Assembly: GCA_008632985.1 (NCBI GenBank)
Contig: QPGO01000041.1
Location: 186,001 to 250,000, forward strand
DNA: 64,000 nucleotides
From: Psammoneis japonica
Lineage: Eukaryota
Direction: 5' to 3'
The first letter of the stretch is position 1, and each line of letters opens with the position of its first letter. The position numbers and the translations under genes are program-made. Shown in pieces: positions 2,505 to 38,475 of the stretch. The notes below the pieces were generated by a model that ran no database searches, was not told the origin of the DNA, and was given only the letters and a program-made list of their open reading frames with translations.

Positions 2505-3908
2505 CTTTTGGACGACTAGTAGGAATGATAGGAGGGAAGTATCCTCGCAGCTGGTTTGTCGCCAACCTTAAACAGAAAGTCATGACGGGTACTTTGCTCC
2601 GGCAAAAGAACAAAGTTGAAGTCCTTGATATCATACGCGTGGCGGCGTTGAAGGCTTGAATCACCCTCAACGAAAAATGGAATGCGTGATTGACATAGAG
2701 AATTAAGTGCAAATTTGTCTATCGTCTAACGAAAATGGGCATACGTGATTGACTTGGGTACTGTACGTCTTACAGAATTCCATGTACATTCAATCATTGA
2801 AAACGATTTGTCTGAGCTCCACAAATCACTTGTTGTGTTACTTAAACTGAGCGGCACATTCCAAACGTGATCTCCCAAGTTCCGCAAAAAAAAAAAATGC
2901 TTGGTGCCTCGAAACTCAGAGCAGCTCAAGGCTTCACTCGATGATGTGCCAAGTCAAGAGCGACATTCAACAAATGATGGAATTCTGGTTTCTCGCATCC
3001 ACTCAGTTCCACCTTTTTGAGCTGATCGCAGTTGCAGCCACATGCGCAAGATCTTGTGCAAATTCCTGCCAGCACAATTTCCAGCTCCAATCAAGGGAAT
3101 CCCAACGGCTTCAAGTTTCTGTTCTTTGGCACGCTTCAGACCAGACTTGCATGTCTTTTAAAGCAACTTGTCCTTGTGTTGCAAAGACACATGATTGTCA
3201 TCTGTTGCACAGGTTGGTCCCACTGCCAAGATTGTGAGAGTGCCACACATTTGGCTCCCACCCAAAACATGTCTGCTCCTCTGGGAGGGCCAATCATGAC
3301 TTTTTGCTTCACCACCAGGGAATCAGACAACACCCCAATTGCTCTTTTCCATTGGCTCAAGATGCTGGTGGACTTGTTGCCAAAGCTCTGGGCCACCCTT
3401 GTCTTCAAAAGCCCTTGCAACAGAATCCTCGCACATGCAATGGCATGACCCACATTCTTGGTGGCACAGACAATTGCCGCCATGTGGCCCTTGTCAGCCT
3501 TGAAATCCAAGACCAAAGAACAGCTCCCCAACAATGCACAATGTTTGCCACCACCACTGCCCAAAGGGGCAATGGGAAAATTTGTCCCATTGAGGTGATG
3601 GACAACCACCTGCTGGTGAGTTGTGTTGGTGCAAGTGAGTGGTGGCTTTTTCTTCCTCTTGTGTTCCCTCATGCCACCAACTCTCACAACTCTGCAGCTC
3701 CGCCTCCTGTTCCTTTTTGATCATTTCAGAGAGATGATTGTCAATCTGAGTTTCAAGCTCTTTTCTTCATCAAGACTTTTGAAGAGGAAATCATTTTTCT
3801 CTGTGGCTCTCTTGCTTGTTTGTGCTTTTCTCTGTCAGGTTGTCCCCACAGCACCTCCCACAGCTTTTCCAATTCTTCTCTTTTTGTCATGCACATCACA
3901 GCTTGTCC

Positions 3909-4143
3909 AGTCACGACTCAACATCATCTGGTCGCATGTCACAACTGCAAACCAGACTCAGCCCATTTCAGTCAATTCACTTGGCTTGCTCACAATTCGA
4001 TTCAAAACAGAATCAACGACTTTTGTCACAATCTTTGGACAACGACTTTCACAAAAGCATCTGTTTGCTCTGTTGCCATCTACATTGCTGCCAACCTCCG
4101 AGGTCTTGTCCACCCTGCCAAGCTGCAGGACTGTGTCTCGACT
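3909..4143 (+). repeat. 5' LTR
   Basis: Colinear ungapped match to 10894-11128; ends AGTC...GACT. Confidence 0.95.
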
Positions 4144-4277
4144 GGTTGTGGACCCCAAGTGTCACGCGTTGACGAGTGCTCCTGACCGAGTCATCGTCAC
4201 GGACGCATTCAGTTTGATTTTGAAGCAAACCCGGGAAATCGCTTGAGACTCCTTGCTCCTCCCGTCTTCATCCTGTC

Positions 4278-7200
4278 AAGAACTTGCTCTTTCAACCATG
4301 GCACTCTCGAAGGAAACCCTGGCGGAAGCGTTTGCAATGGCTGTGGCCACAGACCGCAGATCGAATCCTCCACCTCCAACCCCAACCCAACCGTCACGCG
4401 GTGGAATCCATTGGGCTCATGGAGTCTACATTGGTGGTTCCAAACTCAATGACACACATCAGCAAACATCAACAAGAACCTGCCAATTCGCCTTGCAGTG
4501 CCGTCATCCCAAGGCTCTCGACTCGACAGAGCAATCCCTCTGAGATCAGCAAGCTTCCGCAATGACTTCCAAGTTCAATGGTCAACTCAAGATTTCAAAT
4601 GGTCCTCTCAACGAGCTTGACAAAGACCATTTCGTCAGTGCGATTCAAGAGCTGGTCGAGTGTCATGGGCAACAGATGTTCTGCCACGTCAAAACCAGCG
4701 ACGGCACGGTCAAATGTATTTTCAATCATCTCCACGAGTTCTCTGTGACCAATCTTGTGGACGAGTGCAACACCAGGACCGCAGCAACGGACAACACTCG
4801 ATGCGACCCAATCGAGCTTGACAATGTCGGCCTCTCTCAGCTTCTGGTGAAGTCCAGAATCACGAACACCTTTTGCAAGAAGATCGAAACCAAGTTCAAC
4901 CATCTTCCGGACTTCCACGACTGCCCTGGGTCGATTCCATTCATGATGGCCCTAGACACATGCAACACCAGTGCTCTGACGGATGTTGAGACAGCTGGGA
5001 AGCAGCCAGACGAGCTCAATTTGGCCAACTTTCCCGGTGAGGACTGCACGGACTTTGCTGCTGAAGCACTCTGAATCGTGAAAGTCATGCAGACCGATTG
5101 TGCACTTCTGACAAACACTGGCTCCAAGCTGCTCCACAAGGTGTCCCACACGTCGTCTGCGTGCTTCAATCGAGTCATCCACAGCCAGATTGGTGAAGTC
5201 AAGAAGATGGAACACAAGCATCGCCTCAAGGATCCCGCCGCAATCAAGTCCGACAGCGACTGCGCCAAGCTCGGACCAATTGGCATCATCTCTTGGATCC
5301 AAGAACAGCATGGCGAGCTCGTCAAGGACGGAGAATGGCCCACTTTGATTGCCAAGCTTCCAGAGAGTGATGAAGCAGCTGCCGACAACCCTGTCAAAAC
5401 CAAGCACTGCTTCGACTGTGGACTCGAAGGCTGCACCAAGCAAAACTGTCCAAAATGCAACAAGCCTCCGGCTGAGGATGATCCTCTGCCGCCTCAACCA
5501 TCTGCAGACAACCCTCCTTGTGGGAAACGGAAAATCTCTGCCTGGCGCATCAAGTTTGTTGGCGAGACCACCAAAGACTCCAAGGGAAAGGAATGGAAGT
5601 GGTGCGGCAAGTGTTTGCCAAAGGACGCCGAGAAACCCGGCATGCACCAACGTCACTCTACCGCCGAGCACAAGGAGAACTTCAAGCACCCCATGCAGGA
5701 AGCCCCCGCTGGCAATCTCTTGCAAGTCTTGGATCCCGACAGTGGTGTGCCTGTGGGCCCGCCCGCCCAGACTGCCACGGAACCTGCCGATGACGAGTCG
5801 GACCCCAACGAGTTGGTCTTCACCAGAATGTGGTGCGCGGCTGCTGACGCCATTGACGACTCTAATTTCCTCTCCACTGCAGTCCCTGCATCTGCAGTGT
5901 TTACTCTGGCACCTTCGGCCGAGAGGGAGAGCAATGCAATCATTGGCACTGAGGTCAATTGCAACGAATCGAGCCCACCCGTTCTTGCCTCAGTCATGCC
6001 TCCAGTCATGCTCCCAGTCATGGTTGAGATGACATCTCCCGAAGAAGCCGACAACTTCTGCGAATGCTCCGATGCTTCATCTGCGTTTGAGCATGAACCT
6101 CCAGCGATTGAGTTGTTTCCAGCCTCGAAGCTGCACTCCATCAAACATCCAAATGAGTTCTGTGATGCTCCCGCAAATTTGACGGACATGCTGTCAGACA
6201 ACACCAAGTTAGACCTCATTCTTGAACACGATGTGCACTTTGAAGACGCACACGACAACTTGCCTCTGTGTGTCACTCACCGTGGATGCGATTTTTGTGA
6301 CCCAGAAGACCCAGGCATGGATGATTGTCATGAGCACGACAAAGAAGAGACCTCTTCATGTCAGTCTCTGCAAGAACGAGCCAAACTCTTCGCATTCTGG
6401 CTTGCAGCTGTGTTCTGGGAGACGGTTTTGCATGTCTGTTTTGCGCCAATCCCTCGCATCCCTCGCGCTCTACGTTGCAAACCTCGTGAGCTCACTCTGC
6501 ACGGTTTTCCTGCATCATGGATGGTGCTGTCTGTGGCAATCATGGTGTGGACCACGGCGCACAAGGGCATCCCACCCGAGTGCCCATTTTCGAACATTTC
6601 GAGCCGCCTCACAACCGCCAGCTCCCAAGTCCACTCGATTGTCGGAGAGCTGGACAATCGGATTGTGTCAGATGCCGGATCATTCTTCGAACACAACAAG
6701 ATCAAGGGACGACAGGTTCTTGCCAAGTTTGTCTCGCGCCACCCGTTGCACGCGCTGAGCACCCGGCCACAAGACTGCTGGAAGACCCTGGAAGTAGCTG
6801 AACGGTCAGATCCGATTGACGAATCAGCCTTCTTTGACACCTGTGAAGAACTGGAACCTCTCGACGACCAGAAGTGCTTCTTTGACGCTCTCAAGGACTT
6901 CAGTCTGGATTTCTTCCGATTTGATGAGCTCTGCATGCCACATCACATCGTTGATGCTGCTCATTTTCAAGATCCCCATGACCTGTTGGAAGAAGCACGT
7001 GTTAGACCCGCCACACACAATGCATCCACCATCAAGCTGCTCACCGGTCACTCCCAAGCCAACCCACTTGCCTCCAATCCGGTGGCACTCATCGGTCTGT
7101 CGGATGAGCAGCATGATGTGGTCATGGACACAGGCACCACATTGGCTGTCACTTTCGACAAAGCCAATTTTGCTGCCCCCCTGACCGTTCCCAAGAAGCC

Positions 7201-10200
7201 TCTTCAGATGAATGGGATAGCCAACGGTCTCACCATCCAAGGTGCCGGTCCAGTCTCATGGGTTTTCACGACGCCGAGCGGAGCCACCATCCAACTGAAC
7301 ACTGTGGAGCACTGCGCACCCTCCTGTCTCCCCAACGCCTCTTTAACGAAGAGAAGGGAGCATCTGGCAAGTGTGAGGGCGATCAACGGAGTTTCAGAAT
7401 TGTTGTTGATGGCACTGGCAAGTTGGATGCACCGCATCACGACTCAAGCTACCTGCCCATTGCATCAATGTCCAAGGGCACCACCAAAGCTCCTCAGGTG
7501 AACCTGCAAATCCTGAACGAGGAGAATCAAAATCTCACGGCAGGACAGAAGCTTTCAGTGGAAATGCACTCTTGCTTTGGCCACATTAACTTTGCTCACG
7601 TTCAAGCACTTCTCCGCGCTGTTCCGTTCCCATCGAATCGTTTCAAGGCAGTGGCCAAGTGCGACCATCCCAGGTGCGAAGCATGCGAGCATGCCAAAGG
7701 CCACAGACGGTCCCTGGGCTCTGCCCACAAGACGACAGTCCCTGAATGCGACGGGGCCCTTCGAGCTGACCATTTGTGACCGGGTCAGGCTGTCAGCGTC
7801 AATCATTTCGAGTCTCGCCTGCTTGGCCGAACCTTTGACTCCTGCGGTAAAGCCACGTCCCGGCAATTCAAGGGCGGTCGCATTTTTGTCGATCAAGCCT
7901 CGGGCCATGTGCAGGTCGAGCATCAACTCAGTTTCTCCGCTGTCGAGACGATTCAAGCAAAACAAGCGTTTGAGAAACATGCTTTGGACCATGGTGTCAT
8001 CGTTCAGGAATTTCTTGCCAACAGTGGAGCTTTCAAGGCCAACTCTTTTGTGCAACACACACGAGAGCATGAACAACATCTCCGTTTCTGTGGAACCAAC
8101 GCCCATCATCAGAACGGCGCAGCAGAATGCGGCATCCAAAGCATCTCCAACATGGTGAGAGCGATGTTGCTCCATGCCTCTGTTCACTGGAAAGGTGGGA
8201 TTGACAGCTCCCTGTGGCCCATGGCTGTTTCTTGTGCTGCGCATGTCTACAATGTCACCCCGAATGCCAAGGGACATTGCCCAGCGGACATTTTCACCGG
8301 CTCGACAGTGCCTCGCCATTGCTTGTGAGACATTCACACATGGGGATGTCCGGCGTACGTGCTCGACCCCAAGATCGCTTCCGGGAAGAAACTGCCGAGT
8401 TGGGAACCCCGCACTCACCGCGCCTTGTTTGTGGGACTCAGTGCGATCCATTCCAGTGAAGTGCCTCTCGCCCTCAATTTGCAGACTGGCAGCATCACTC
8501 CTCAGCATCATGTGGTTTTTGACAATCTCTTCACTGCTGTGCCATCAATCGAGAGGGAGACGGATCCACCCAATCACTGGGAGCAACTCTGTCTCAATCA
8601 GTCTATTTGCATCCCTCTGGAGAGGACCAAATGGTCCACTTGCACAATGAATGGCTTGCTCCTCCAGAGCACCAACGTAAAGAGCAAGAACCAGCCAGGG
8701 AGACTCGCATTCACGGACATTTTGAGCCCACTCCATCGATTGCTGTCGAGAATCCTCCCGCTCCTTGCCAAGATGCATCCAATCAAGTCACGTCTGCGAC
8801 TCAGGAGCAAACGCCTCCAGTCCCATCTACGACTCACGATGCCATGGCTTCTGCGGAGTCTGCGCCAATTCAGCCACCTGAACCTCAAGTTGGCAATGAA
8901 CTTCCGCCACCTGAAGCGCCGCCTGAACCAACAGCTCCTCCTCTGACCAAAACCCCTGCTGTGTCGAATCCAGAGGGAGTGTCAGGGCTGCGACGGTCTT
9001 CAAGGTCAACCAAGGGACAGCTCAACTCTGCCAAGTTCATGGACGAAGTCTGCTGCAGCTCCGTCAAGGAAACCCCAGTGCCGAAGGGACACGAGGCTCA
9101 GCTGGCACATCTGGCAACTCTCGAGACCGACTTGGATTGTGCCACACTCAATGTTGGTGATCCTCGAGCCCATGCAGCAAGCAAGAAAACCAAGGACCCT
9201 GACATGCCTTCCTTGCACAATGCTCTGAAAGGACCGGATGCCGAAGAGTGGATCAAGGCGATGAAAATCAAAGTCAACACGCTCATCCATCGTCGAGCAT
9301 GGGAAGCAGTCGAGCGCACTCCGAAAATGAACGCACTCCCAGGAACATGGGCTCTTGAACTCAAGCGGCCACCAGATGGCACACCCTTGAAGTGCAAAGC
9401 CCGGCACTGTGTTTGCGGCGATTTGCAGAAAGAAGGAGTGGACCATTTTGAGACCCATGCACCAGTCGTGCAATGGTCCAGCATCCACCTTGTGCTCACT
9501 GCAGTCTTGAAGGAAGGATGGACTGCGCGTCAAGTAGACTGTGCTGCTGCCTTTTGCCAAGCCGACATTGCCGAAGAAGTCTGTGTGTCGCCACCGAAGG
9601 GTTTCGCGCCAAGATCAGGACTCAACATGGTCCTCAAACTTTTGAAAGGACTGTGCGGTCTGAAACAGTCTCCCAAGGGTTTCTGCGAGAAGCTGCGAGC
9701 TGGATTGATTGAGCGCGGATGGGTGCCTTCAGCAACAGACCCTTGCCTGTGCTTCAAGGAAGGGATGATGTGCATGGTGCACGTCAACGACACCGCATTC
9801 GCTGGAGCATCAGCTGAAGCTCTAGAGGAGGAGATTCGCAAGTCAGGAGTCTCCAACGATGAGCATCGCCACATGTTTGAACTTAGGGACGAAGGAGAAG
9901 TCAGAAATTTCCTCGGCATCAAGATCGAGAAGCTCTCCGAGGGCCGATTTTTGCTCACCCAACCTGGTCTCATTGACAAGGTCCTGCGCACCGCCCAGAT
10001 GGAAGAATGCAATGGAGCTGTCACTCCAGCCCTTCCCACTCCTGTTGGTGCTGCCACGGACGGCCCACCTTTCGAAGAACCCTGGGATTGTCGTTCCGTT
10101 GTTGGCATGTTGATGCACTTGGCTGCAAACAGTCAGCCAGACATCGCCTGCGCAACACATCAAGTTGCACGTTTTTCATTTGCACCCCAAGCGCCCCATG

Positions 10201-10872
10201 CTGCTGCAGTGAAGCAGATGCTCTGACACCTCAAGGCCACTGCTGCTGAGGGTCTCATTCTCAAGCCTGCGCAAGATCATCGAGTTGATTGTTGCGTCGA
10301 TTCTGACTTTGCGGGCTCATTTGGTGTCGAAGATGGGCAAGACTCAGTTTCAGTCAAGTCCAGGACTGGACACCTCATCCACTGTTCCGGCTGCCCGCTT
10401 GTCTGGGTGTCCAAGCTGCTGACTCTCGCAGCATTGTCGACTGTGGAAGCGGAATGTGTCGCACTTTCTCAAGCCATGCGCGATCTCATCCCCATCCGTG
10501 AAGTTCTCAAGGAGCTCAACCATCACGTGTTCGGAAAGTCTGACCACCAAAACCCTGTCACGACTCGATCCAAGGCTTTTGAGCTCGCAAACCAAGGTTC
10601 CGAAGATGCACCTGTTGAGCAAAATGTCCTGCCTGCGTCCGTTGTGTACGAAGACAATGCCGCGTGCCTCAAGTTTGCACGCATGCCCAAGTTGTCTCCG
10701 CGAACCAAGCACATCGGCATCCCGCACCACTGGTTTGGGACTAAAGTCTCGAACAATTGGAGATCAACATCCAACCCATCAGCACTCCAGAGCAACCAGC
10801 CGATCAGCTCACCAAGGGACTGCGGACCGATGCGTTCCGTGCGGCTAGAAAGGCTCTTGCATGGGCTGGCAA
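4278..10872 (+). pseudogene. Copia gag-pol pseudogene (TGA stops, frameshifts, Tyr replaced by Cys/His)
   Basis: Knuckle-like CFDCGLEGCTKQNC, protease VVMDTGTT, integrase HSCFGH..CEAC and AHHQNGAAE, RT CKARHCVCG / LCGLKQSP / MVHVNDT, RNase H DSDFAG / EAECVALS / YEDN / KHI. The probable terminal M-G-W-stop now reads ATG GGC TGG CAA (10861-10872). Confidence 0.95.
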
Positions 10873-10893
10873 GCTCTCTCGGTTGAGAGGGAG

Positions 10894-11128
10894 AGTCACG
10901 ACTCAACGTCATCTGGTCGCATGTCACGACTGCAAACCAGACTCAGCCTGTTTCAGTTGATTTGTTTGGCTCGCTCACAATTCGATTCAAAACAGAATCA
11001 ATGACTTTTGTCACAATCTTTAGACAACGACTTTCATCAAAGCGTCTGTTTGCTCTGTTGCTGTCCATGTTGCCACCAACCTCCGAGGTCCCATCCACCC
11101 TACCAAGCTGTGGGACTGCATCTTGACT
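10894..11128 (+). repeat. 3' LTR
   Basis: Follows the PPT, matches the 5' LTR, and is followed by TSD TGTCC. Confidence 0.95.
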
Positions 11129-12082
11129 TGTCCCAGATTTTGATGGTCATCAGCACATCAGAACTCTCTTTCCACTTGGTCAGTGTCCCACTCTCCAGCT
11201 GTTTTCACACTGCAAGCTTGTGTCAAGGTTCGCTTGTTCCACACAATCTCTGTGGATTTCTCTTGTTGTTGTGAGTGTCAACTGGACTCCTCACTCTCCA
11301 GCAGCATTTGCAAAAATGTTGGATGACTGCTTTGCAATGAAAACACAAACCCTTGTTGCAGCAGCAGCACATTTTGGAAGGATGAGAAAGTTGGTGAGTG
11401 TTCCTCCTGGCGAGAGTGCACAGAGTGGTCCCCAGCCCTCCTTTCAAAGAGTTGCCAGCCAGCACACCACACCCAGCCCACTGTGTGCTGCAGTTGGAAT
11501 TGTTCCTGATGGTTCCAACTGCAGCTTGCTTGGTTCAATCAAAAAGGGAGTGCAGGACATGTCACAGCTCCATTCCGACACAACTGAGTGCACCAACTGA
11601 TTGAGGCAAAACAGCATGCGCAGCAAGACACATGTGTGCAAAACTGTGCTGGCGCCGTGTGTTGTTGTTTGTTGGGGCAGTTGCCATGATCCAAATTCTC
11701 TCTCTGTGAGCATTTGAAACAATGTCACCAAAGAAAAGGGACAACAGAATCAAAATGAACAAAAGCAGCACAATTTGGACATTGCGGCAGAGAGCGAGTT
11801 TTGTGCAGGGGGGTGTCACCACAGCAACGCAAGGTCCAGTTTTTTTATCCTAAAATTTTGGTGGATCACCTTCAAACAAGCAATGTTCATTGCTTCTATG
11901 TGACAGCGCCGAGTGGCAAATAAAAAGCCGCTCCGATTCTCACGGTGGTGTTTTGAGGAATGGTGTACATGCGTGACTGAATGAGTCCCGTCTAGCTTCC
12001 ATTAGAAGCACACCACACCAAAACCGAAAACAACGGTCACAAGAAAAAAGACTCGACACACAAAATTTCGTGTCATTTGACC

Positions 12083-14077
12083 ATGGCGCCGACGTCGCCA
12101 TCACAACGGGCGGTCGTTCGACGCACGTCGTATGTTCAATCCTATCTTGTCATTGCATTGGGTACATGTAGTCTCTTGACGGTTCTTGTCAATTTTCTAC
12201 ACGGATCTCACGTGGCTTTTTTGCACGAGCAAGAACATAAGGATAGTGTCTTTTTTCAGCGCATCGTTCCAGCAACTAGCAAACACGAGTTGGCGGGTTT
12301 AAAGTGTGATGCCTACGGTGGTCCTTCGGAAGAACTGGCACAAGAAATGGTATATTGGTCCGATATTCAAGAAGATGCTTCGTATACGAGTCCGTTTTTT
12401 GATAAGGACACGCCGCGGTACATGACGTTTGAACCGGATGGGGGTGGTTGGAATAACATTCGCATGTCCATGGAAACCGTACTGGCCATGGCTCGTGAGT
12501 ACTTTTTTTGCGAATGTTCTGTGACGTTATGGTATGCTGTGTCTGTTCTTATATTGTCAATCTCTCTGTTCTTTTCTGTGTTTAGATGCCATGGGACGAA
12601 CACTTGTGCTGCCGCCCGAGCAGAGCATGTACCTGTTGGGAAAGGTAAGTATGATCAACTTTAAACTATTCGAGTCTTTTTTGTCTCTCGCATCACATTT
12701 ATCATGTATTTCTCTGGTTCTTTGTTAAAATATAGGGTAAAGCCAAGGTAGGTATTGACGTTCTGGATGCTGTTGTCTGTTGTTGGTTTCTTCGTCTCTA
12801 TCTTTTCTTCTTACATCTCTCTTACCACCCACCTGATTTGTTGACTCTCTCTCGTCATTATATAGAATGGCAAGGAACAACGCCGAGAGTTTTCGTTTTC
12901 CGACTTTTTCCACATGGACTCGATTTCCCGAGAACACGAGGGCCTGGAAATTATTTCGACAAAAGAATTCTTGGAACGCGAGGCTCTGACGGGACACTTG
13001 GTGGACCGTACCACGGGCAAGGTTTCCTTTCCACCCGACAATCGAACCGATTGGAACGGTGACAAGCAAGTGATTGAACACATGTTTTCTCCGTGGTTGC
13101 GGAGTGTGGCCTACCAAGGCATGAAGGATTGGAATCCAAACGAGTGTATCGCGGCCTTTCCGGCATCGAAGGATGCCAAAGATATCGATGCTTTGAATCG
13201 TATCGTCAAGAAAATATCTGAAAACAAGTGGCCCAAGTGGGAACAATACGTGGGCAAACCAACACCGGTCGATGCCTCACCGGAAGAACGCCTCAAGGAG
13301 AACTCTGCAGACCGCCACAAGCTGTGCATTTACAATCAAGAAATGCAAGAGGACTTGTTGGTGCATTTTTCGGGAAAGCAAAAACTGGGTGGTCGCTTGT
13401 TGGTGCACTTTTATGCCTTTTTGTTTTTTGAAGATTGGAAACAAGACTTGTGGATGAAGCGGTTTGTGCGGGATCATGTCCGCTACGTTGATGAGTTGCA
13501 GTGTGCGGCGGCTCGTGTTGTGCATGCCGTGCGACAACGTGCGATACAAGTGGGAAATGCCAATGGAGAGTTTGATTCGTTTCATGTACGTCGTGGGGAT
13601 TTTCAATACAAGGAAACGAGAATTTCTGCCGAAGAATTGTATGAACGGTCCAAGGATGAAATACCCGACGGAACCACTGTTTACATTGCAACAGATGAGC
13701 GCGACAAGAGCTTTTTCAAGCCGCTTGCGGAGCATTACCACTTGGTATTTCTGGACGACTTTAAGCACTTGTTTGAGGATCTCAATACAAACTACTATGG
13801 AATGCTGGATCAATTGATTGCCTCTCGTGGTCGTGTCTATTTTGGTTGCTGGTTTTCAACGTTTTCGTCGTACATTAATCGAATGAGGGGCTATCATGCC
13901 GACAAGCTCAAGTTACCGGGGTATGAACAGGGACTCGTTGAGAGCTACTACTATGCTCGACCGGACGATAAGTACAGAATGCGGGAGTTTTACCCCGTCA
14001 AGAAGACATTTCATTCAAGAGAATACCCTGCAAGCTGGAGAGGTATTGACAAGGGAATAGGGTTGCTACAAAACTAA
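12083..14077 (+). CDS. GDP-fucose protein O-fucosyltransferase family protein; exons 12083-12494, 12586-12644, (12736-12747), 12866-14077
   Basis: N-terminal signal anchor, GGWNNIRMSME, GRTLVLPP, FHVRRGDF, VYIATDE and STFSSYINRMRG motifs; canonical splice sites keep the frame. Confidence 0.9.
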
Positions 14078-15564: not shown

Positions 15565-17772
15565 TCAGGTCGCGGTTTTGGCTTGTGGTACTGTCGGTTC
15601 GTACACTTCATCCATCATGCCAATGCCTTTATCGATTCCTCTCCAACCAGATGGGTACTCTCTCGAATGAAAGGTTAATTTGACAGGATAAAACTCTCGC
15701 ATTTTGTACTTATCCTCTTTTCGTGCATAGTAGTAACTCTCCACCAGTCCGTCCTCATAACCCGGCAAGTGCTCCTTGTCTGCGTGATAGCCTCTCATTC
15801 TGAATATGGTGACGGGAAACAAAAGAAAGATTTGCGGTGAGTCATGACCGTAATGAACCACGAAAACGAAAAAGATCAATGAGTGAGCTCACCTGTTGAT
15901 GTAAGACGAGAAAGTGGAAAACCAGCAACCAAAGAAGACTTTACTTCTCGACGCGACGAGCTGATCAAGCATGCCATAGTAGTTCGTATTGACGTCTTCG
16001 ATGAGGGGTTTGAAATCATCCAGAAAAAGCAAATCGTAGTGGTCGGCCAACGGTTTGAAGAACGATTTGTCCTTCTCATCCGTGGCAATGTAGACCGTGC
16101 CACCACTCGTCAACTCCTTCTTGCTCACATTATAAATCACATCCGCGTCAAATCGAGTATCACGGTATTGAAAGTCTCCACATCGAATATGAAACGCATT
16201 GTATTCTCCATTGAACGTGCTGTTGCGGTTCTCAACGTGTTTTCGAATAGCGTGAACAATGCGAGCGGCAGCGCACTGAATCTCGTCCACATAACGGACA
16301 TGATCTCGCACAAAACGCTTCATCCACAAATCCTGTTTCCAATCTTCAAAAAACAAGAATGCATAAAAGTGCACCAACAATCGTGCTCCCTCAATACTAT
16401 GGTCCATGGGAAAGTGCACAAGAGTTGCATCCTGAAAGGACGTGTCGTAGATGCAAAGCTTCTTGCGTGTCGCCCAGTTCTCTCGCATGCGAACCTTGGG
16501 CGCAGCGTCTACCGGATTCGGCTTGCCAATGTATTCTTCAAACGTCCAAATCCTTTCTTAGAGTCATGAATTTCTTTAAAGTACTGTTGCAATCGATCCA
16601 CACCCGCTTGTCCGTGGTGGAAGCAAATGCCGCCATGCACTGTTCGGGACTCCAAATCGTATTCTTGTCGGCAACGGTTCGAAGCCACTTGTCCAATTCA
16701 TTGGTAATGACCGCCTTTCTTTGGCCGTCCCAATTGGTTCGATTGTGGGGTGGAAAGGAAACTTGACCCGTTTCGCGATTGACCAATTGACCCGTCATGG
16801 CGACGCGTTCCAAAATTCCGTCATTGTAATTATATTCAAACCCTCCCGGTGCTCGTTGGCAATCGATTCCAAATGAAAAAAGTCTCGAAAGGAAAAGTCG
16901 CGCTTGTGCTTACTCTCGCCCTATATAATATTCAATTTTTGAAATATAGAGAGTGAGAAAGGAATTGAAAAAGAGAATCATTTTCATACTCCCCACCTAC
17001 CGATTTTAGCAGGTAGGAAGCTGCCCTTTCTTTCAAGCTACCACTTACCTTGTCTAGAAGATAGTACTTTTGATCGGGAGGCAAGACGAGTGTCCTCCCC
17101 ATGGCATATGCCATTGCCAATACAGTTTCCATGGACATGCGAATGTTGTTCCAGCCTCCCTTGTCTATAAAATAAATATGGTAAAGAGCAGAATTAGGAC
17201 GAGCATTTTAAGAAACAAAAAATCATCTTCTGAAATAACAAAACACCACGTACCTGGTTCGAACGTCATGTACTGAACTCGGTCTTTCTTTTTGAATGGA
17301 CTGACATAGGTATTATCCGATGGTATATCTTGCCAGTACACCATTTCTTGGGCAATTTCTTGTGCTGGACCGCCGTAAGCATCGCAATTCAAACCTGAAA
17401 GCTTATGCTCTGCTTTTGATTATCATGTTATTTTCGGAGACTGCTGCTTCAACCTTGCTTTTTTCCTTTGCTTGTATTTTTTCTCGATTCATCGTCCTTC
17501 TTGATAGATTCCTTTACGTTGCCCTTCTTTGGTTCCCTTGTTAGTTGATCCTTGGGCTCTTGTCGCGGTTTTTTTTGTTTTGCAATTTTCCAATCATCCT
17601 GGAGCAAGTGAGGAGGTGCCGCACCGCGAATGGTGGGTGCTGTACTTGTATGCCATACATTAAAGGTCACAGAAATAAAGGTAAAGATGGATAGCACCAA
17701 GATACCATAGAATATTAAACTACCACAGCCTGACTTTTTCTTGTTGTTGTTGGACGACGACGACGACGCCAT
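15565..17772 (-). CDS. Second O-fucosyltransferase paralog; three introns and several apparent 1-bp frameshifts (pseudogene or consensus errors)
   Basis: Near-identical blocks to 12083-14077 (CDAYGGP, LLVHFYAFLFFEDWKQDLWMKRFVRDHVRY). Frame breaks near 17430, 16813 and 16550-16610. HVRRGD reads HIRCGD. Confidence 0.8.
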
Positions 17773-20210: not shown

Positions 20211-23179
20211 GCTTGTTATTCGTCCTTTTTTTCTACAAGTCAAATCTCATTGAATTCGTGTCGTCGATGGATTGGGCTTCTTCTTCTTCTTCTTCGACAA
20301 GCTCCTCCTCCTGCTGCACCGTTGTTTGGTGTAGGCGTCGTCTTTTCTCACCAACTCGTCGGTTCCGTGTTATCATACAGTAACATCAAATCGTTGCGTT
20401 TGCTGACTGTTTCAAGGTTATGAGCCATGTGTCAAAGCAGCACAAAATGAAATTGGGCATGCCACCTTGAGCCAAAAGGAGACACTTGAGGCAGGAACAA
20501 CACTGACATGAACCACCAGAACAGCGCCATTTCAACATAAAGCAAAAGTGGCTGCAACAATTTCCTCCTGCCAATCCACGCCCATGTGCTCATGATTTTC
20601 CCAGATCACAAGGCACTGGCACCCACAGCACATGACTTCTTGCTCAAATCATCGTGGCATGGAGAGCCTTTCTGCTCCACTGCACTGCCATCCACAAAGT
20701 TCCCCAACTCTGTTGTTCATGCAGCGCATGCCTTCTTTGCCTTGGCAGCCAGTGGGGATGTGATTTTACACCCCAGGTGACAATCTGAGGAAGAGAAAAA
20801 GAGATGTCAAAAATGCCGCGAGTTGACAGGCCCCATCCACAAGGCACAAGAACAAATGGCAAAAATCAAACTTTCAACCATGCCGTTGCATGTAGAGCAC
20901 AGTCTCATTGATGTGTCTTGGCACTCTTTACTTTTTTGTCACAATGGGCACTGGTGTGAAAATGGGCAAGAGTTCATGGCAGCCACGGCATGGCGCCATT
21001 TTTCTCTGTGCACAATTTGTGGTTTAAGAGGGGGTCATTTGCCACTTTTTTAAGCTCAAATTTGGCCAAACAGCTGGTGATTTTCATGATTTTTTCCTGA
21101 ACTTCACTGTGCTTTGCCATGGTGAAAACATCTGGCCACAAGTCTGTGACAGAGTTGGCCCATCTGTCAACAGTCATTCTTTGTTTTCTTGTTGTGTTTG
21201 TTGTGCACATCAATGGTCGCGTGTGCATCAAATGTTTGAGGATGGATCACTGCATTTTGGAGAAATGTTGACATTGCCATCATCATTTTGTGCTCCAATC
21301 ACAGTGCCTGATGTTCTTGTTTTTGTGAATGATCAGGGGTGAATGCAAGTGATTTTTGCATTCTAAAATGAACACTGCAATGTCCTCTTGTTCAAATGCC
21401 ACAGCAACTCCAGGACAAATGCAAGGATGACCCCCCTCAAGACATGAAAAAACACATCTTTGTCATGGAGCCTGATTTTCTTGTGCAGGCTTGGCACTGA
21501 ATGCACAAGCTGGGTGCATGGAAAGATGCAGAGAACCTCTTGGCTCATCCAAAAGTTTGCTTCTTGCCTTCAACCAGGGTGCAAACACGTCAACCACTCC
21601 CCTTCACGCTGCTCCCTTGCATTGTGGCTGCCAACAAATTCCAGGGCTTTGCAACCAGCTGTTCTTGCTGAAGACCCTGTTGCTGCATCCACCTGGAGTG
21701 GAGCTGTGCTGTCAACTGCTGGCCATGGAAATCCACGTGCAATTTGTGCTTGCTCAGCAGCACTCTCTTGACAGTTGGAGCATGAGGCAATGCCACACAT
21801 GTGATGTTTTAGATGCTTTGGTCTTTTCACCAAAACCTGATGTGACTCAGGTCAGAGCTCAGAACTCAACACATTTGTGTGGGAGCACGCATTCTGCCAC
21901 ACCAGCAGCAGACAAAGCTTGCACAACATGCGCCTGTCTAACATCACTGTGCAGATCATGAAAACCAGCATTGTTTGAGGGTGGTGCAGGTTGCCACTTT
22001 TTCCAGCTCAAATTCAACCAAGTGGCTTGTCTTTTGCATTTTCCCCTGAATTTCACCATGCTTCCGTCTTCCAACTCTCGTTTGTTTTGTGTTCCTCATG
22101 CGCGCCAAAGTTCTCACACACGTGAAAAGTTTGAAGATGGCAAGCTGCATTTTGAGAAATGTTGATGATCATCATTGTTGTTGCACCTCAATTGCAGCAC
22201 ATGTGATGTGCTTGTTTTCATGCGAGATTGGCGACGGGGTGTGCTGAACACAACAAGAGCAATTTTTGTGCTCAAAAATGGGTGCCAACAAACGTGTGAC
22301 AAACAACATCATTCAATTGCGTCAGCAGTTTCAGGACAAATGCCTGAATGACCCTCCCAAGCTCTGAGCCCCCAACAGTGCCTCCAATTGCAAATGTGCA
22401 CGTGATTGACAAGAACCAGGCCATGCAACATGCTGTGTGACTGAAGGTTGCTGCACCAATGCAAAGCAGAGGTCATGGTCTGCGAGTGGTGGAGGTCATT
22501 CAATGTGTTGGAATGAAGATGACAGACAAGATTGAGGACTTTTTTGACGAGAGTGTTGGCGTGGTCACAGTTCTGACTGCTTTGGTGGCAGCTGGCTCTG
22601 TTCACACTCTCCTGCTAGAGTGGAGAGTGGCAGCTGCTCTAAAGGAAGTTGCATCATGCAGTGCATGCGCGCGTAGAAAACAAAGTGCTGTGCGGCTGCT
22701 GTGGGTGGGGACGCCGTAAAAATCACGCAGGTGCCATTTTTTTAGAAAAATCAACCTTGCTGCCCAAATGGACCATGTCGGTTGTCAACCACCTCACACA
22801 AAAAGTGTCATCATCTCGATTCATAAGACTCAACGTGCGGTCACAACGCGCAAGGCTGGGCTTCCAATTCCCGCCACAACGTCAGCTAAGTGACCACCAA
22901 GTCAACCTGCCATTTCTCACCAAATCGCACTCGCACCCTCAGGATCATTGTAAAAAGTTGTGCTTTTGATGCCATCATGTCCGCCGTGATCAAATTGGGC
23001 GGGGTGCACCAAAGTGCAACTTTTGGCGGCAGTTTGGATGTCTGCCAATGTCAACATCTCTCATTTGAACAACATGTCATCATCAAAATGGCAAGTTCAT
23101 GAGGCAGAACTGAGCCACCTGACAGCAATGAAGTCAAAAGATGGCCTGTCGGTGCTTGCTCAAGTTGGACATCTACTCA

Positions 23180-24640
23180 CTGCATTGCAAAAGGGACATT
23201 TTGGCAATGTCAGGAAGGGCACGTACAGGACTGCGGGATTTCCCGTGTTGGATCTACGAAGCACTCAGAAAATTGTTTTAGGATCCATTGTTTCAATCAT
23301 GGATGCACAGAAGATTGCAAAACGAATCATTGACAGGAGGAAGTTGCTGTCTCAAGAATGCCAAGATGCGCTACAATCGTGTGTGACATGGAGAACGGAT
23401 GGATAAAACTCTTCAGATTCAAACAAACAACAATGACAAGAAACGCAAGCGAACCCACTTTCATTCCAGAATTTCAACAAAGGTGAGACTCCGACAATGC
23501 AGGCATTCTCTGTGTGGAGTTGTGTTGAAAATTGAAATGAATGTCGCCTTTCATCACTGGTTTGCCTCACTTTTTTAAAGTTGTGTCCGACAGGCAAATG
23601 CCAGAAACTGATTTTGTCTCATCATGGTGCGGCTTTGTGATGCCAAAAGGCATGGTTGATTTTCTGCATTTCTCGCGGAGATGTGTTGCTTCTGCAATGA
23701 CACCAAAGCAACCCCTTCTTTTCTTTTTTTCTGCTGCAAGCACTTTGACAACAATTGCGTCATGACGCATGTCATTCAGATCATTGCCATGGCAAATGCA
23801 TTGCCATTGCACGGGACAAGAGTTTGCCATCAAGGTAAATCCAAACAAATGAACAAACCCTGTTGGCTGAGGATTCAACTGCACTCCAAGCTGAAGCCGC
23901 CATGTTGCAGAAATTGGATCATCCTTAAATTGTCAAGCTGCACAATGTGTCTTGCAGTTGAGCCAGAGTTCTTCATTTGGTCATTTTGGCGGTGACGCGT
24001 CTGGTTGTATCTGACATCCTTCATCAACCTTGGTTTGTAAAGCACATTCATTTGGAAAACCATTGCAACAGTGACTCTCACCCCTCCCCACGCGCTGATT
24101 ATGTGCCCACAGGTTTTGGAGATGCTGCACGCACATTGGAGACCGTTTTGATCAGATTGTGTCAAAGGGCAAGTGCTCTGAAGTCCAAAGATGCTGAGTC
24201 ATGAGACAATTGCTTGCTCAGTGTAATTTACCACCTTCAAGCCATTCACAGTGACTTCAAGCCAGAAAAGATTGTGATGATTGATCGTAACTCTGACATT
24301 GGCACCAAGCTGACAGACTGTGGAATGGCCACCGCAAGACCTTTTGTCAAACACCCGGAGTGTTGCGACACCGTCACATGGTTGCTGGACGAGTGAGATG
24401 CAAAGCGGATGCCGACATGTTTTTGTTGGGAGTCATTTGCTGCATCTTGCTGTGGGTGGCAGTCCTCCCTTTGCTGGTGATGCCGCAGGAGCCACCGAAC
24501 GACAAGTGACGTTTCTGCCAGATGTCTTTGCCAATGTCATCTGCAGGCAGCTAAACATTTGGCAGTTTGGTTGTTGCTGGCAGACCCAAAGGACTGATTG
24601 TCAGCACAAGAAGTGTGTCAGTGCCTTTGGATCTTGATTG
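23180..24640 (+). pseudogene. Degenerate Ser/Thr (CAMK-like) protein kinase
   Basis: Ordered motif relics KGHFGNV (Gly loop, about 23190), IHSDFKPE (24244), KLTDCGMA (24307), LGVICCIL..PPF (24426-24472); stops and frameshifts; TA-depleted. Confidence 0.75.
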
Positions 24641-26029
24641 ACATGGAGACACGCCTGTCAATCCTTTGGATGATCCCGCGTTGGCCAACTCCTGAGGCAA
24701 CAACAATGAAATGACTCATGGTTTGCAAACAAAAGACAAATCAGAGAATGTGAATGTTGACAAACCTTTGGAAGAGGACTCAAGGATGACTGAGCAGAAG
24801 GACACGAATGTGAGAACGGAGGAGACAACGAGTGAGCGTGACCTTGTGAGAGAGGGGCGAATTGAATTGCCACTCCAAGGGCAACGGGGAATTCTGAACA
24901 TGGAACAGACACGTGAAAAGACTAAAAAAATGTAGAGTTCATCATGCTTGAAATTGTGACCTTAGAAGCAGTTTCACTGGGAAACAAGCGAGCATTTGCT
25001 CGGTTGATTTTCATTTTTTATGCGGCGAAGCACGGCAAAATCTAGAAAGATGCTGCTTCATGTTCTCTGCAACTAGAGAGTCAGGCAACACAGTGGACAC
25101 ATTGCTGGAGACGTGAGAGCCTCTACTTTCAACATTGGCTGCCATTGCCATCACAAAGGCTGCCAGAACATTCCAAAAGGTGTGCACTTGTTCGGGTGAT
25201 TTTTACACGGTGAAGTGCGGCAAACGCGACAAAAGTGCCATTTCACGTTCTCTCCAACTACGGAGTCAGGTGACTTGGCAGATATGTTTTTAGATACGTA
25301 AGAGCCTCTGCTGTTGACATTGGCCAGCATTGGCATGATAAAAGCTGCAGCAACATTCCAAAACTGCAAATGAGCAACGGCGGGATTTTCGAAAAATCGA
25401 AGTGTTTTCAGTCGTGATTGCACGGCAAAGCACAGGAAAATGGCGGTCACTTCATCGACATCAATATCGACAAATACAAGGCCAATGAAAAAGTTACCCC
25501 CATGCCATTCTAAGCACCTCTGAACACCCTCTATCGACTAAGGTAACTCTCGTTTCGATCCAAGAAAATTCGTCTCTACGTGATTTATACGGCGTCCCCA
25601 CCCACAGCTGCAGCGCGCGCAGCACTGTACTGTCCCGTACAGTAGAGGAAAATTATGACTCTATGGTCATAGGTTTTGGGAAGTGTTCTTGGTTTCTAAA
25701 TGACTCGTACTATATTGACATATTTGAAAGTTACCATCAAGCAATGGGAGATTTATGATCCTACCAAATCATTATATGTAAATGACGTATGTTTTATATA
25801 TACTATAGTAAGTCAAATTGCGATAGTCAATACCTCAACATATGAATAGGTAGGCCATTTGTCTTGATCCTCATTAAAAAATGTCCAATCCATTCGTGAT
25901 AGAATGGACATTTTCGGTCATTTGCAAAGTCTTTCGAGAGATTGGCGTTTTCTCGCGCCGCCCTTTCATTATTTGCTTTTTTTTCCGTCCTACTCACACT
26001 TGAGAAGAGTTAGGCGAGAGTCAAGAAAG

Positions 26030-29000: not shown

Positions 29001-29729
29001 GTTGAGGAAAGAACGTTTACATTAGACGACACTGCTTCATCTGCAGCTCCCAGCTCGTCTCCCAGCGATGTGGCTGCTACTGAGGCACCAACGATATCGC
29101 CGTCTATATTTCCGAGTGCAGCTCCCAGCGACGTGGCTACTACTGAGGCACCAACGATAGCGCCGTCTATAGTTCCGAGTGCAGCTCCCAGCGATGTGGC
29201 TGCTACTGAGGCACCAACCATTGCGCCGTCCACAGTTCCGAGTGCAGCTCCCAGTGACGTGGCTACTACTGATGCACCAACCTTTGCGCCGTCTATAGTT
29301 CCGAGTGTATCTCCCAGTGATGTGCCAACTACCGAGGCTCCAACCATTGCGCCGTCCAGAGTTCCGAGTGCAGCTCCCAGTGACGTGGCTACTACTGAGG
29401 CACCAACCATTGCGCCGTCTACAGTTCCGAGTGCAGCCCCCACCAATGTACCTTCTACCGATGCGCCTACCATTGCGCCCACCAATGCGCCATCTACATT
29501 TCCGAGTGCTGCTCCCAGCCCCCCGTCAGCCGTCTCGACACCGACGACTGCATCTCCCACGGGCTCTCCGACTACTTGTGGTAACGATCTTGATTGGATA
29601 TTTATCAAAAACAATGGAAGTAGAAAGACTTGCTTCTGGGTTGCAAGCAAACCAGGCAGACGTTGCACGAAAATTGGCGAAGATGGGACCGTAGCCAGTG
29701 TTGCATGTTGTGCTGCGTGCCGTGATTAG
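26030..29729 (+). CDS. Secreted reprolysin/M12B-like zinc metallopeptidase with two beta-sandwich repeats (DxYxxETTW), a Pro/Thr/Ser-rich stalk and a Cys-rich C-terminal domain; multi-exon
   Basis: Signal peptide [36 protein letters not shown]; spliced HEIGHNMGCSHD; GDGICC motifs; many GT-AG introns. Confidence 0.9.
29065..29520 (+). repeat. Coding 60-bp tandem repeat (SDVATTEAPTIAPSxVPSAAP), about 7 units
   Basis: Seen directly in the DNA and the translation. Confidence 0.9.
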
Positions 29730-33422: not shown

Positions 33423-33423
<1 letters not shown>

Positions 33424-33477
<54 letters not shown>

Positions 33478-33507
33478 ACACACACACCACACACACACAC
33501 ACACACA
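33424..33507. repeat. (CA)n microsatellite with two interruptions
   Basis: Seen directly. Confidence 0.97.
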
Positions 33508-33508
33508 A

Positions 33509-37761: not shown

Positions 37762-38264
37762 TGCAATGCACATTGTCATGCACACTCACGTGCATGTGAA
37801 TGTTTTCACATTTTCAATTGTGCGTCAATTGTGGGTTTGTGCAAAGAAGGGCTGGTCAATCACAGAGAGTTGACTGGATGTCAGAAATTGCAAATGTGAT
37901 TGCACAATGATGTTGACATCTTGTGCATCAACAGCAATTGCGCCAGACAATCTGTTGTCACGGCTGCATTCTCCAAAAGGCGTTTCAGTCTGCAGAAGCA
38001 GCACAGAAGCCTTGGGGCATTGAGAGCTTGTTTGGAGAAACCCAAAATGATTGAGCAGATTTCAACTTCACAATTTTCACTTTTTGCACTTTGTTTTGAT
38101 TTCATTTGCGCTGATTCTTTGAGCACAGTGCAAAGCCATGGAAGCCAAGAAACAAAAAGACTCTACAGTGTCAGTGCTTTGAAACAGCTCCGCTGTTGAC
38201 AGCCCCCAAGAACAAGGGCCAAAAGTGGCACAACTCATCAACTTCTTTTACAAAATTGGCAAAA

Positions 38265-38475
38265 GCACCAAAGTGTCGTTCATCAAGCTGAGTGAAAGCA
38301 AGTGTGCCCAGGACAGAGTGCAGAGAATCATCTGCCAGTGAAAGTGAGAAAGCAAAAAGCACTTGACAGGTGCCAAAGTGTCAATGCTCATCAAGCTGAG
38401 TGAAAATGTGCCAAGGACAGAAAGCAGAAGTTTGTCATCTGCCAGAGGACATGGACGCCAACTGAGAAAGCAAAA
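38265..38475 (+). repeat. Diverged about 105-bp tandem repeat (2 units)
   Basis: CCAAAGTGTC..TCATCAAGCTGAGTGAAA..GGACAGA..TCATCTGCCAG occurs twice. Confidence 0.7.

Follow-up and report, generated by a model that had tools for sequence, protein, structure and literature searches.

Two long coding stretches of Copia type in the diatom Psammoneis japonica lack tyrosine, and at several positions where this residue is normally conserved they read cysteine or histidine. The locus therefore raises the question of what removed the tyrosines, in which direction and at what stage the change took place, and how far it extends beyond the element. We analysed a stretch of 64,000 nucleotides (contig QPGO01000041.1, positions 186,001 to 250,000 of the forward strand), called the window here, and all positions given below are those of the window.

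A dead Copia element in an older repeat

On sequence grounds, positions 3909-11128 of the window make up a dead Ty1/Copia LTR retrotransposon of a diatom lineage (Table 1). The Pfam match to RVT_2 (PF07727) scored 103 bits against a cut-off of 31.6 and covered 241 of the 244 profile positions, and a protein search returned 52 diatom-type polyproteins with 40-52% identity, the best named relatives being from Fragilaria crotonensis and Cylindrotheca closterium. These relatives are 2,100-2,300 aa long and their tblastn alignment is collinear over 4397-10864, confirming the domain order and extent of a Copia polyprotein. The integrase domains gag_pre-integrs and SH3_retrovirus lie 5' of the reverse transcriptase and are followed by RVT_2; Pfam gave no match to the rve core (PF00665) in the element, and this core is likewise unlisted for the 56 closest relatives. 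A large single polyprotein, the Copia order and short LTRs are also features of the CoDi-type Ty1/Copia elements of diatoms as they appear in the available text of Maumus et al. 2009 (PMC2806351). Unlike these, the present copy is dead and rewritten.

The frames of the polyprotein were set by tblastn of the 52 relatives (the three main parts of Table 1, and 10748-10858 for the last). They are broken by five in-frame TGA stops and about four frameshifts, near 7321-7327, near 8616-8631, at about 10747 and at 10859-60; related contigs from a public run (X1) are 2 nt shorter at 10747 and at 10859/10860. Three of the five TGA codons fall in columns where the relatives have mostly arginine, which points to a change from CGA to TGA. 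Directly after the 5' LTR, at the candidate position of the primer-binding site, the bases begin (T)GGTTGTGGACC.

The element is surrounded by an older repeat that is poor in both TA and CpG. As this repeat resumes at 11134, beyond an intact target duplication, the Copia element was inserted into it. Composition is normal, and a host gene is present, from about 11996. The long ORFs of the left part of the repeat (2850..3903) match no Pfam family.

Table 1. Positions of the Copia element, its parts and the surrounding repeat in the window
Feature	Position	Strand	Basis and remarks
Older TA-poor, CpG-poor repeat, left part	2850..3903		TA o/e 0.014, CG o/e 0.24
Target-site duplication TGTCC	3904..3908 and 11129..11133	+	Identical 5 bases flank both LTRs
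5' LTR, 235 nt	3909..4143	+	Ungapped match to 10894-11128, 86.8% identity
Gag-protease part, frame 2	4397..7326	+	tblastn, 52 relatives; in-frame TGA at 4541 and 5072
Integrase part, frame 1	7321..8630	+	tblastn, 57-62% identity; in-frame TGA at 7777 and 8326
gag_pre-integrs	7564-7698	+	Pfam E 2.3e-4, under the curated cut-off
SH3_retrovirus	8332-8526	+	Pfam E 9e-6, under the curated cut-off
Reverse transcriptase and RNase H part, frame 0	8616..10747	+	tblastn, about 50% identity; in-frame TGA at 10224
RVT_2 domain	9297-10034	+	Pfam E 2.6e-29
HVND, former YVDD catalytic box of the reverse transcriptase	9780..9791	+	CAC GTC AAC GAC
C-terminal end of the polyprotein	10748..10872	+	Two 2-nt frame disturbances, at about 10747 and at 10859-60; CAA at the relatives' stop
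Purine run GAGAGGGAG, probable polypurine tract	10885..10893	+	Adjoins the 3' LTR; function suggested by position only
3' LTR, 235 nt	10894..11128	+	Ungapped match to 3909-4143
Older TA-poor, CpG-poor repeat, right part	11134..11846		TA o/e 0.000, CG o/e 0.22

Tyrosine columns as a record of direction

According to the original prediction the polyprotein is free of tyrosine. For the two coding stretches on which this was based, of 807 and 539 aa, it is correct: the stop-to-stop ORF at 5075-7501 has 808 codons and no tyrosine, and there is none in the 539-aa stretch (8607/8610-10226), the frame-0 ORF 8523-10226 having a single one at 8604. At 3% tyrosine, the chance of finding none in 808+539 residues is 1.5e-18. 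Over the whole polyprotein the claim has to be relaxed, as five tyrosine codons are left among 2,159 (0.23%), including one in the 976 codons of the Gag-protease part. Cysteine makes up 3.66% and histidine 5.00% of the codons; in the 52 closest relatives, the same set as was used for the column counts below, the ranges are 2.6-3.6% for tyrosine, 1.3-3.1% for cysteine and 2.4-4.3% for histidine.

All seven motifs in which tyrosine was said to have been replaced (CKAR, DHFETHAP, LCGLKQ, HVND, CRS, SRTGH and EAEC) were located where they had been placed. Tyrosine is found in 52 of 52 relatives at 9456 (second H of DHFETHAP), 9654 (C of LCGLKQ) and 9780 (H of HVND), in 51 of 51 at 10089 (C of CRS) and in 50 of 50 at 10455 (C of EAEC). 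It is less constant at the first H of DHFETHAP (33/52), the H of SRTGH (33/51) and the C of CKAR (16/52), where the other relatives have mostly phenylalanine.

When a conserved column is defined as one with tyrosine in at least 70% of relatives, there are 32, and the window has histidine (CAY) at 13 of them, cysteine (TGY) at 11, tyrosine at three, phenylalanine at three, and isoleucine and tryptophan at one each. Only 3 of 32 tyrosine columns are thus kept, against 576 of 701 (82%) other conserved columns (Fisher p 6.6e-18). All tyrosine codons start with TA, and for this reason a change at TpA turns tyrosine into histidine or cysteine. With 24 of the 32 columns reading CAY or TGY, and relatives with open polyproteins having tyrosine there, the proposed direction, from TAY to TGY or CAY, is well founded. 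The five columns that read F, I or W lie outside what a TpA change explains. The refuting condition, that intact relatives too have cysteine or histidine at these columns, does not hold, tyrosine being kept at 30 of 31, 26 of 28 and 21 of 25 in the metagenome relatives L001, L013 and L005 respectively.

An active lineage that natively avoids TA and dispenses with tyrosine would account for the bare composition, which alone speaks for it. The probability of such a lineage is practically negligible, given that five of the changed columns, among them that of catalytic YVDD, have an invariant tyrosine in the relatives (50-52 of 50-52), and that the element has five in-frame stops, about four frameshifts and LTRs that are 13% diverged.

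The catalytic box itself shows two kinds of change. Of the suggested conversion of YVDD to HVND, the step from tyrosine to histidine did occur at a TpA, but the asparagine, in a column where 52 of 52 relatives have aspartate, represents CpG to CpA (C-GAC to C-AAC) and no TpA change. At the end of the polyprotein, 43 of the 52 relatives finish in ...GW and in the window M-G-W is followed by CAA (10870-10872), which makes the supposed loss of the stop, from TAA to CAA, plausible. It is a fair reading, with HVND in place of catalytic YVDD, that the process kills enzymes; the five TGA stops and some four frameshifts indicate, however, that part of this damage is due to CpG decay and indels rather than to loss of TpA.

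Timing, strands and confinement of the change

Between 5078 and 10872 there are 23 TA where 302 are expected (o/e 0.076) and 297 CG where 424 are expected (0.70), with CA at 1.40 and TG at 1.55; for the internal region the ratios are 0.073 for TA vs 0.71 for CG. The LTRs differ at 31 positions, and 27 of these are within CA, TG, TA or CG (Y-R) sites, at 18 shared sites: at nine of them CA stands opposite TG, at three TA stands opposite CA or TG, and at six CG stands opposite CA or TG. Outside Y-R sites there are 4 of the 31 differences, or about 4 changes in roughly 135 positions. At no site do both LTRs retain TA, while five sites have CG in both and six in one, and from the counts of the LTR pair the loss per copy is estimated at about 0.92 (about 92%) for TpA vs about 0.375 (about 38%) for CpG. 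Both composition and the LTR pair agree with the earlier view that TA loss outpaced CpG decay, and a decay of CpG to TpG or CpA which accompanied the loss of TpA, but at a slower pace, is supported.

The differences between the LTRs, the nine CA-vs-TG sites among them, mean that the change took place after integration, in place and on both strands. The 13 histidines to 11 cysteines (binomial p 0.84) likewise show both strands to have been hit equally. In the three series in which processivity was tested, TG or CA outcomes did not form strand-coordinated runs, and a weak excess of pyrimidine after A on the edited strand (46/69 vs 32/69 for the other strand) is not relied upon.

ADAR A-to-I hyper-editing acts on repeat-derived double-stranded RNA and has in common with the present process the A>G outcome, the favoured 5' U/T neighbour and the targeting of repeats. 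It differs in that here genomic DNA itself is altered, on both strands, after integration and with near-absolute TpA specificity; ADAR-type editing of RNA is contradicted by genomic change on both strands that differs between the LTRs. More generally, the element has an RNA stage and ADARs prefer a 5' U (Discussion of bioRxiv 10.64898/2026.01.13.699255, in its available text), and it might be supposed that the element's RNA underwent ADAR-like A-to-I editing, or its cDNA was deaminated during reverse transcription, and that the result was fixed on integration. We judge this to be very improbable, as the two LTRs share one template yet differ at 12 TA-derived or TA-holding sites (nine of them CA vs TG), both strands are equally changed, the older repeat around the element is TA-free too, and in other islands the same changes affect dead copies of ordinary genes.

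These gene copies belong to a wider pattern. Five TA-poor islands occupy 32.2 of the 64 kb, with a TA o/e of 0.03-0.10 vs 0.59 outside them and CpA and TpG enriched to 1.4-1.9, and host genes lie no more than a few hundred bases from their edges. The process stays within these bounded islands, which are made up of repeats and dead gene copies, and leaves adjacent genes untouched. For two of the dead copies an intact paralogue in the same window serves as a stand-in for the ancestral sequence. The first has kept none of 47 TA (20 became TG, 19 CA and 8 other) and the second none of 38 (18 TG, 17 CA and 3 other), so that TA was replaced by TG or CA at 39 of 47 and 35 of 38 sites. As TAA and TAG are lost, both strands of the islands fill with long but false ORFs, 37 of at least 100 aa in 8 kb. 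Pfam found no transposon family when 29 long ORFs from the flanks and from the other islands were searched. In the island at 49290-51133 the only Pfam matches were sub-threshold ones to FBA and Lipase_3.

In Neurospora and other ascomycetes, RIP converts C to T at CpA, makes TpA and enriches AT, and it mutates both copies of a duplicate. The process described here is likewise a transition-only, dinucleotide-biased hypermutation of DNA that inactivates transposons in place and forms sharply bounded islands, but it runs in the opposite direction, destroying TpA (A:T>G:C) and enriching GC. RIP itself fails on its TpA excess, TpA being removed here with CpA and TpG at an o/e of 1.4-1.9, and on the rule that all sizeable duplicates are hit. 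A trigger of RIP-like kind, in which repetition rather than chromatin state or location switches the mutator on, would fit the presence of repeats or duplicated gene pieces in every island, and parts of the Copia family reach a summed word depth of up to 4,580 in run X1 vs about 33 for unique pieces. Such a trigger is nevertheless quite unlikely. Duplicates in the same window have escaped mutation, namely 52766-53632 vs 61749-62621 (95.6% identity over 878 nt; 37 of 47 TA kept in a mafft alignment of the wider 52613-53659 vs 61600-62650) and 45960-48619 vs 25993-28479 (83% over 2.5 kb), and in each of the two gene-copy pairs one member only was mutated. Moreover, the hypermutated NCLDV region of Bigelowiella natans is single copy according to the available text of bioRxiv 10.64898/2026.01.13.699255.

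A close unmutated copy of the family was not found by protein search (at most 52% identity) or in a scan of metagenome contigs (80 loci, 31-56%), and the ancestral TA sites were for this reason taken from the protein columns, the LTR pair and the other loci. The median TA o/e of the 80 metagenome loci is 0.62. Only L028 is low (TA 0.27, CG 0.25); it is from a divergent family, in which 67% of the other columns are kept, and its 23 tyrosine columns, with 10 Y, 6 F, 3 H and 1 C, do not clearly make it a case of the same type.

The DNA that carries the signature is probably methylated, as the islands are CpG-poor, and the library type of run X1 is not on record; both would suit systematic miscalls at modified bases in methylated repeats. 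That an artefact of sequencing or assembly is the cause has an exceedingly slight chance. Seven of the eight listed Logan pieces from run X1 lie on 4211-9989 at a depth of 31-35 (record 1 is flank), five of them (315, 587, 347, 440 and 364 nt) being identical to the window and the other two having 3 differences in 1,098 nt and 8 in 1,506 nt; the run may be the window's own source sample, and the comparison is a check on the assembler that says nothing on base-calling chemistry. Contigs of related copies read TA or CG where the window has CA or TG, at 4855, 4867, 10529, 4533, 4541, 7777, 8020 and 8540, and reading frames persist over hundreds of codons. Among the public runs listed as containing this DNA there is none of RNA, and a second run (X2) gave no contig that aligned with it.

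Nature and relations of the mutator

Rewriting of the integrated Copia element at TpA, with tyrosine passing to histidine and cysteine, is very probably the explanation of the locus as a whole. The changes have one direction and one dinucleotide target, came after integration, fell on both strands and are sharply confined; an enzymatic defence that is targeted through chromatin or silencing could produce them. On this reading the Copia element inserted into the older repeat island, and its double-stranded DNA was then hit on both strands by TpA-specific A:T>G:C transitions, TA>TG and TA>CA being about equally frequent, until some 92% of its TpA was removed. CpG decayed to TpG or CpA in parallel and more slowly. 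With the disappearance of TAA and TAG the element's own stop would have become CAA, and with the change of YVDD to HVND its enzymes would have been destroyed.

The most likely chemistry would be deamination of adenine to hypoxanthine, which is read as G. Because TpA is self-complementary, this is indistinguishable from a lesion on the thymine side: TA>CA and TA>TG are mirror images and either base fits as the target. Hydroxylation of thymine to 5-hydroxymethyluracil, which mispairs with G, is an example of such a route. That the same targeted process works by modifying the thymine of TpA, or through an error-prone repair step, seems unlikely; no data are contrary to it, and the choice of adenine deamination follows solely the analogy of known polynucleotide deaminases and of what has been proposed for B. 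natans.

The closest known case of a targeted TpA mutator is that of B. natans, an unrelated alga. In the available text of a preprint (Mettrop et al., bioRxiv 10.64898/2026.01.13.699255, 2026), mutation-accumulation lines have 231 mutations in two integrated viral regions, of which 230 are A>G or T>C, all those on TpA, the rate being measured directly in integrated NCLDV and virophage DNA, and adenine deamination is what its authors propose. Viral TpA is about 1.8-fold low, and TpA-poor coding sequences are enriched in reverse-transcriptase and DDE domains. The process in P. japonica is probably of the same kind: A:T>G:C transitions at TpA give TpG or CpA according to strand, TpA is depleted with CpA and TpG enriched, and bounded foreign or selfish DNA is affected. 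Unlike B. natans, which belongs to the Rhizaria, the present organism is a diatom (Stramenopila) in which LTR retrotransposons and dead gene copies are hit, always with CpG decay, and only an end state near saturation is seen (TA o/e 0.03-0.10), whereas the viral regions are far from saturated. Neither "diatom" nor "retrotransposon" is mentioned in the available text of the preprint, and that of Maumus et al. 2009 (PMC2806351) has no mention of dinucleotide, point mutation, degenerate or tyrosine. A diatom description of a TpA-loss process was not found by full-text searches of the literature or in the main text of three diatom papers or preprints that were checked by word. Tentatively, it is possible that a silencing-guided deaminase of adenine in double-stranded DNA is common to diatoms and chlorarachniophytes and serves as a natural TpA-specific A-to-G defence of the genome. 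In the present case it would have erased about 90% of the TpA in a retrotransposon that the other haplotype apparently lacks, at about five times the speed of 5mC decay.

The change of tyrosine to histidine or cysteine provides a read-out that fixes the direction of a mutator without an ancestral copy, and the LTR pair establishes that this mutator acts on integrated DNA and outruns CpG decay. For annotation, the false ORFs of the islands and transposon proteins that score poorly against family profiles are misleading. Together with the B. natans preprint, the finding points to a TpA-directed A:T>G:C defence, opposite to RIP, in at least two lineages of SAR. A natural editor of adenine in DNA, if this is what it is, would be of interest both to genome defence and to base editing.

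The tyrosine-depleted Copia polyprotein

TA is nearly gone from about 9 kb of the window (about 2850-11846), in which 30 TA remain (observed/expected, o/e, 0.059); outside the TA-poor stretches the TA o/e is 0.59. The core of this region is a Ty1/Copia LTR retrotransposon, with RVT_2 between its LTRs (Pfam, E 2.6e-29) and gag_pre-integrs and SH3_retrovirus, each sub-threshold, upstream of RVT_2. A search among 5.8 billion proteins gave 71 relatives, the named members including the diatoms Fragilaria crotonensis and Cylindrotheca closterium. The best 52 of the 71 are polyproteins of 40-52% identity, mostly of 2,000-2,400 aa (range 1,047-2,411), and give collinear cover of about 4397-10864 in frames 2, 1, 0 and 2 (tblastn). 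An adjoining host gene encodes a GDP-fucose O-fucosyltransferase, the best named relatives of which are all diatoms at no more than 66% identity, and the genome is therefore that of a diatom. Copies of this gene, 66% identical and each normal in composition, lie side by side and inverted at 12884-13878 and 15896-16902.

Coordinates of the Copia termini and of the further TA-poor islands in the window
Feature	Position	Description
LTRs, direct	3909-4143 and 10894-11128	235 nt each, 86.8% mutual identity
TGTCC, 5-base duplication either side of the LTR pair	3904-3908 and 11129-11133	
Islands besides the Copia island (four)	20540-24923, 32780-44976, 49290-51133, 56560-61332	TA o/e 0.03-0.10, CG o/e 0.19-0.41

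It had been proposed from the sequence that two long ORFs of this element lack tyrosine, and indeed there is none in the 808 codons of 5075-7501 or in the 539-aa stretch ending at 10226. In the whole polyprotein Tyr accounts for 5 of 2,159 codons (0.23%), with Cys at 3.66% and His at 5.00%, while the 52 relatives contain 2.6-3.6% Tyr. We tabulated the window codon at each conserved column, defined by at least 70% agreement among at least 20 aligned relatives. The 32 conserved Tyr columns read, as anticipated, mostly His (13; CAT 7, CAC 6) or Cys (11; TGT 6, TGC 5), the remainder being Tyr (3), Phe (3), Ile (1) and Trp (1); at other conserved columns the residue is kept in 576 of 701 (82%; Fisher p 6.6e-18 against the Tyr columns). 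His or Cys is not the usual state of these columns in intact relatives, a possibility that would have refuted the original prediction: Tyr is kept in 30/31, 26/28 and 21/25 in three metagenome loci (L001, L013 and L005, respectively). All seven named motifs occur at the predicted positions. At five of the altered motif sites all 50-52 aligned relatives carry Tyr; at the remaining three, Tyr is found in most relatives or in a large minority of them. The D>N change in HVND is not a TA change but a CpG change (C/GAC to C/AAC). The further suggestion that CAA at 10870-10872 was once the stop TAA is plausible; 43 of the 52 relatives terminate in ...GW and the window reads Met-Gly-Trp followed by CAA, this end being preceded by 2 extra nt at 10859-60 that are absent from some related contigs. 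The loss of tyrosine is confirmed, and its interpretation as directional loss of TA is supported.

Mutation of the integrated element

The LTRs of one insertion start out identical; 31 positions now distinguish them. Of these differences, 27 fall within 18 sites having a pyrimidine-purine step in both LTRs and four lie elsewhere. Nine of the 18 sites are CA versus TG, three are TA versus CA or TG, and six are CG versus CA or TG. The differing outcomes indicate that mutation hit integrated DNA, acting on each LTR independently and on both strands. The His:Cys ratio of 13:11 is consistent with both strands being affected, and the order of TG and CA outcomes contains no strand-coordinated runs. 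The view that TA loss ran ahead of CpG decay also holds in the LTRs, where TA is kept in both copies at no site and CG at five. A simple two-copy model based on these small site counts gives rough per-copy losses of about 0.92 for TpA and 0.375 for CpG, and a CpG origin is expected for about one of the nine CA/TG sites. By the same rough model, TpA loss per site is approximately 5x the CpG rate and on the order of 80x that of the remaining positions, of which 4 in about 135 changed.

The five in-frame stops of the element are each TGA. Relatives have Arg at 5072 (29/32), at 7777 (19/39 among those listed) and at 10224 (51/51), and therefore these stops represent CGA>TGA; in a public run, contigs from related copies carry C at 7777. 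Conserved Arg is kept in 31 of 47 columns and replaced by Gln (5), Cys (3), His (3) or stop (2). Frameshift sites lie near 7321-7327, 8616-8631, 10747 and 10859. The damage is thus divided, TpA loss having removed the tyrosines and the TAA and TAG stops and CpG decay having produced the premature stops. With TGA as the sole stop in 4000-12000, 37 stop-to-stop ORFs of at least 100 aa overlap in six frames over 8 kb, and gene callers will over-predict in such TAA/TAG-free islands.

A public sequencing run, X1 (Logan contigs, library type not on record), contains 69% of sampled window words. Of the eight pieces listed, seven lie on 4211-9989 at a depth of 31-35, five without difference from the window and two with 3 and 8 differences, and at mismatches related-copy contigs have TA or CG where the window reads CA or TG. 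This excludes an assembler or polishing artefact, though formally not a base-calling one, as the assembly may have been built from this run. One contig (depth 51, against 31-35 for unique pieces of the element) joins 3901 to 11127, skipping the entire element, and the element flank is present only as a variant (15 substitutions in 858 nt, depth 52). If the two are taken to be a single popped bubble in which either haplotype has a depth of about 33, they suggest that the insertion is hemizygous; alternatively, the empty site could be a paralogous empty copy of the older repeat around the element. Parts of the element reach a summed depth of up to 4,580 in this run, and so the Copia family, or pieces of it, must be highly repeated.

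Other islands and the possible targeting of the process

The five islands, including the Copia island, together make up 32.2 of 64 kb. No transposon Pfam families were found in long ORFs of the four further islands, and two of these islands contain dead copies of ordinary genes with intact paralogues in normal DNA. One is a RING/FBA-type host gene, whose dead copy (49385-51002) forms a stand-alone 1.8-kb island and whose intact copy (31086-32748) is untouched. The dead copy keeps TA at 0 of 47 sites (20 to TG, 19 to CA) and CG at 11 of 83 (39 to CA, 24 to TG). The other is a TPR-type gene in three copies, two of them unmutated (52613-53659 and 61749-62621) and one in an island (57640-58537); compared with 52613-53659, the island copy keeps 0 of 38 TA (18 to TG, 17 to CA) and 0 of 37 CG. 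These intact/dead pairs show the direction of mutation independently of protein comparisons, and also that retrotransposition is not required. Among the 105 TA that survive in all five islands, CTAA/TTAG and TTAA contexts are enriched about 4-fold and ATA/TAT contexts are scarce (12/105 versus 661/1,341 outside). Either the process is influenced by flanking bases, or much of the surviving TA arose anew from CA or TG.

Duplication alone does not trigger the process, since unmutated duplicates are present in the window. The stretches 52766-53632 and 61749-62621 share 95.6% identity across 878 nt, with neither copy mutated (TA kept in 37 of 47 in a mafft alignment of wider stretches), and a 2.5-kb duplicate (45960-48619 and 25993-28479) of 83% identity has normal TA and CG in each copy. 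Short tandem arrays with self-matches offset by about 63-78 nt occur in normal-composition DNA, at 29059-29519 and 48610-48971. The Copia element lies inside an older island, its flanks having TA o/e of 0.00-0.01 and CG o/e of 0.22-0.24, and its target duplication is intact. This nesting fits, short of proof, targeting by location or chromatin state.

Relationship to known mutational systems

Among 80 metagenome loci encoding relatives, at 31-56% identity, the median TA o/e is 0.62. TA is low in only one, L028 (contig JAAUXZ010084910.1; TA o/e 0.27, CG 0.25), which could be an element of a different organism that has been mutated in part, although its Tyr columns are ambiguous. Repeat-induced point mutation (RIP) follows a like logic but in the opposite direction, and its defining features were not found in the window. 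The RID-related enzyme class acts on cytosine, and DNMT4 would therefore not explain A:T>G:C. Hoguin et al. (PMC9998398) describe this RID-related protein from many diatoms and give its function as unknown.

The closest parallel is in Bigelowiella natans, for which a preprint by Mettrop et al. (bioRxiv 10.64898/2026.01.13.699255) reports 231 mutations across two integrated viral regions in mutation-accumulation lines. Of these, 230 were A>G or T>C, all 230 on TpA, and the rates were about 1000-fold above background. The same work reports enrichment of reverse-transcriptase and DDE domains in TpA-poor coding sequences and proposes an ADAT2-like deaminase as the candidate enzyme; the words diatom, stramenopile and retrotransposon are absent from the preprint. 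Full-text literature searches and word look-ups in diatom papers and preprints found no description of a TpA-erasing process in diatoms. The Copia case is an instance of a TpA-erasing, island-confined mutator that acts after integration, of a kind very recently described; because it offers both an almost complete polyprotein and a pair of LTRs, it is an especially clean example.
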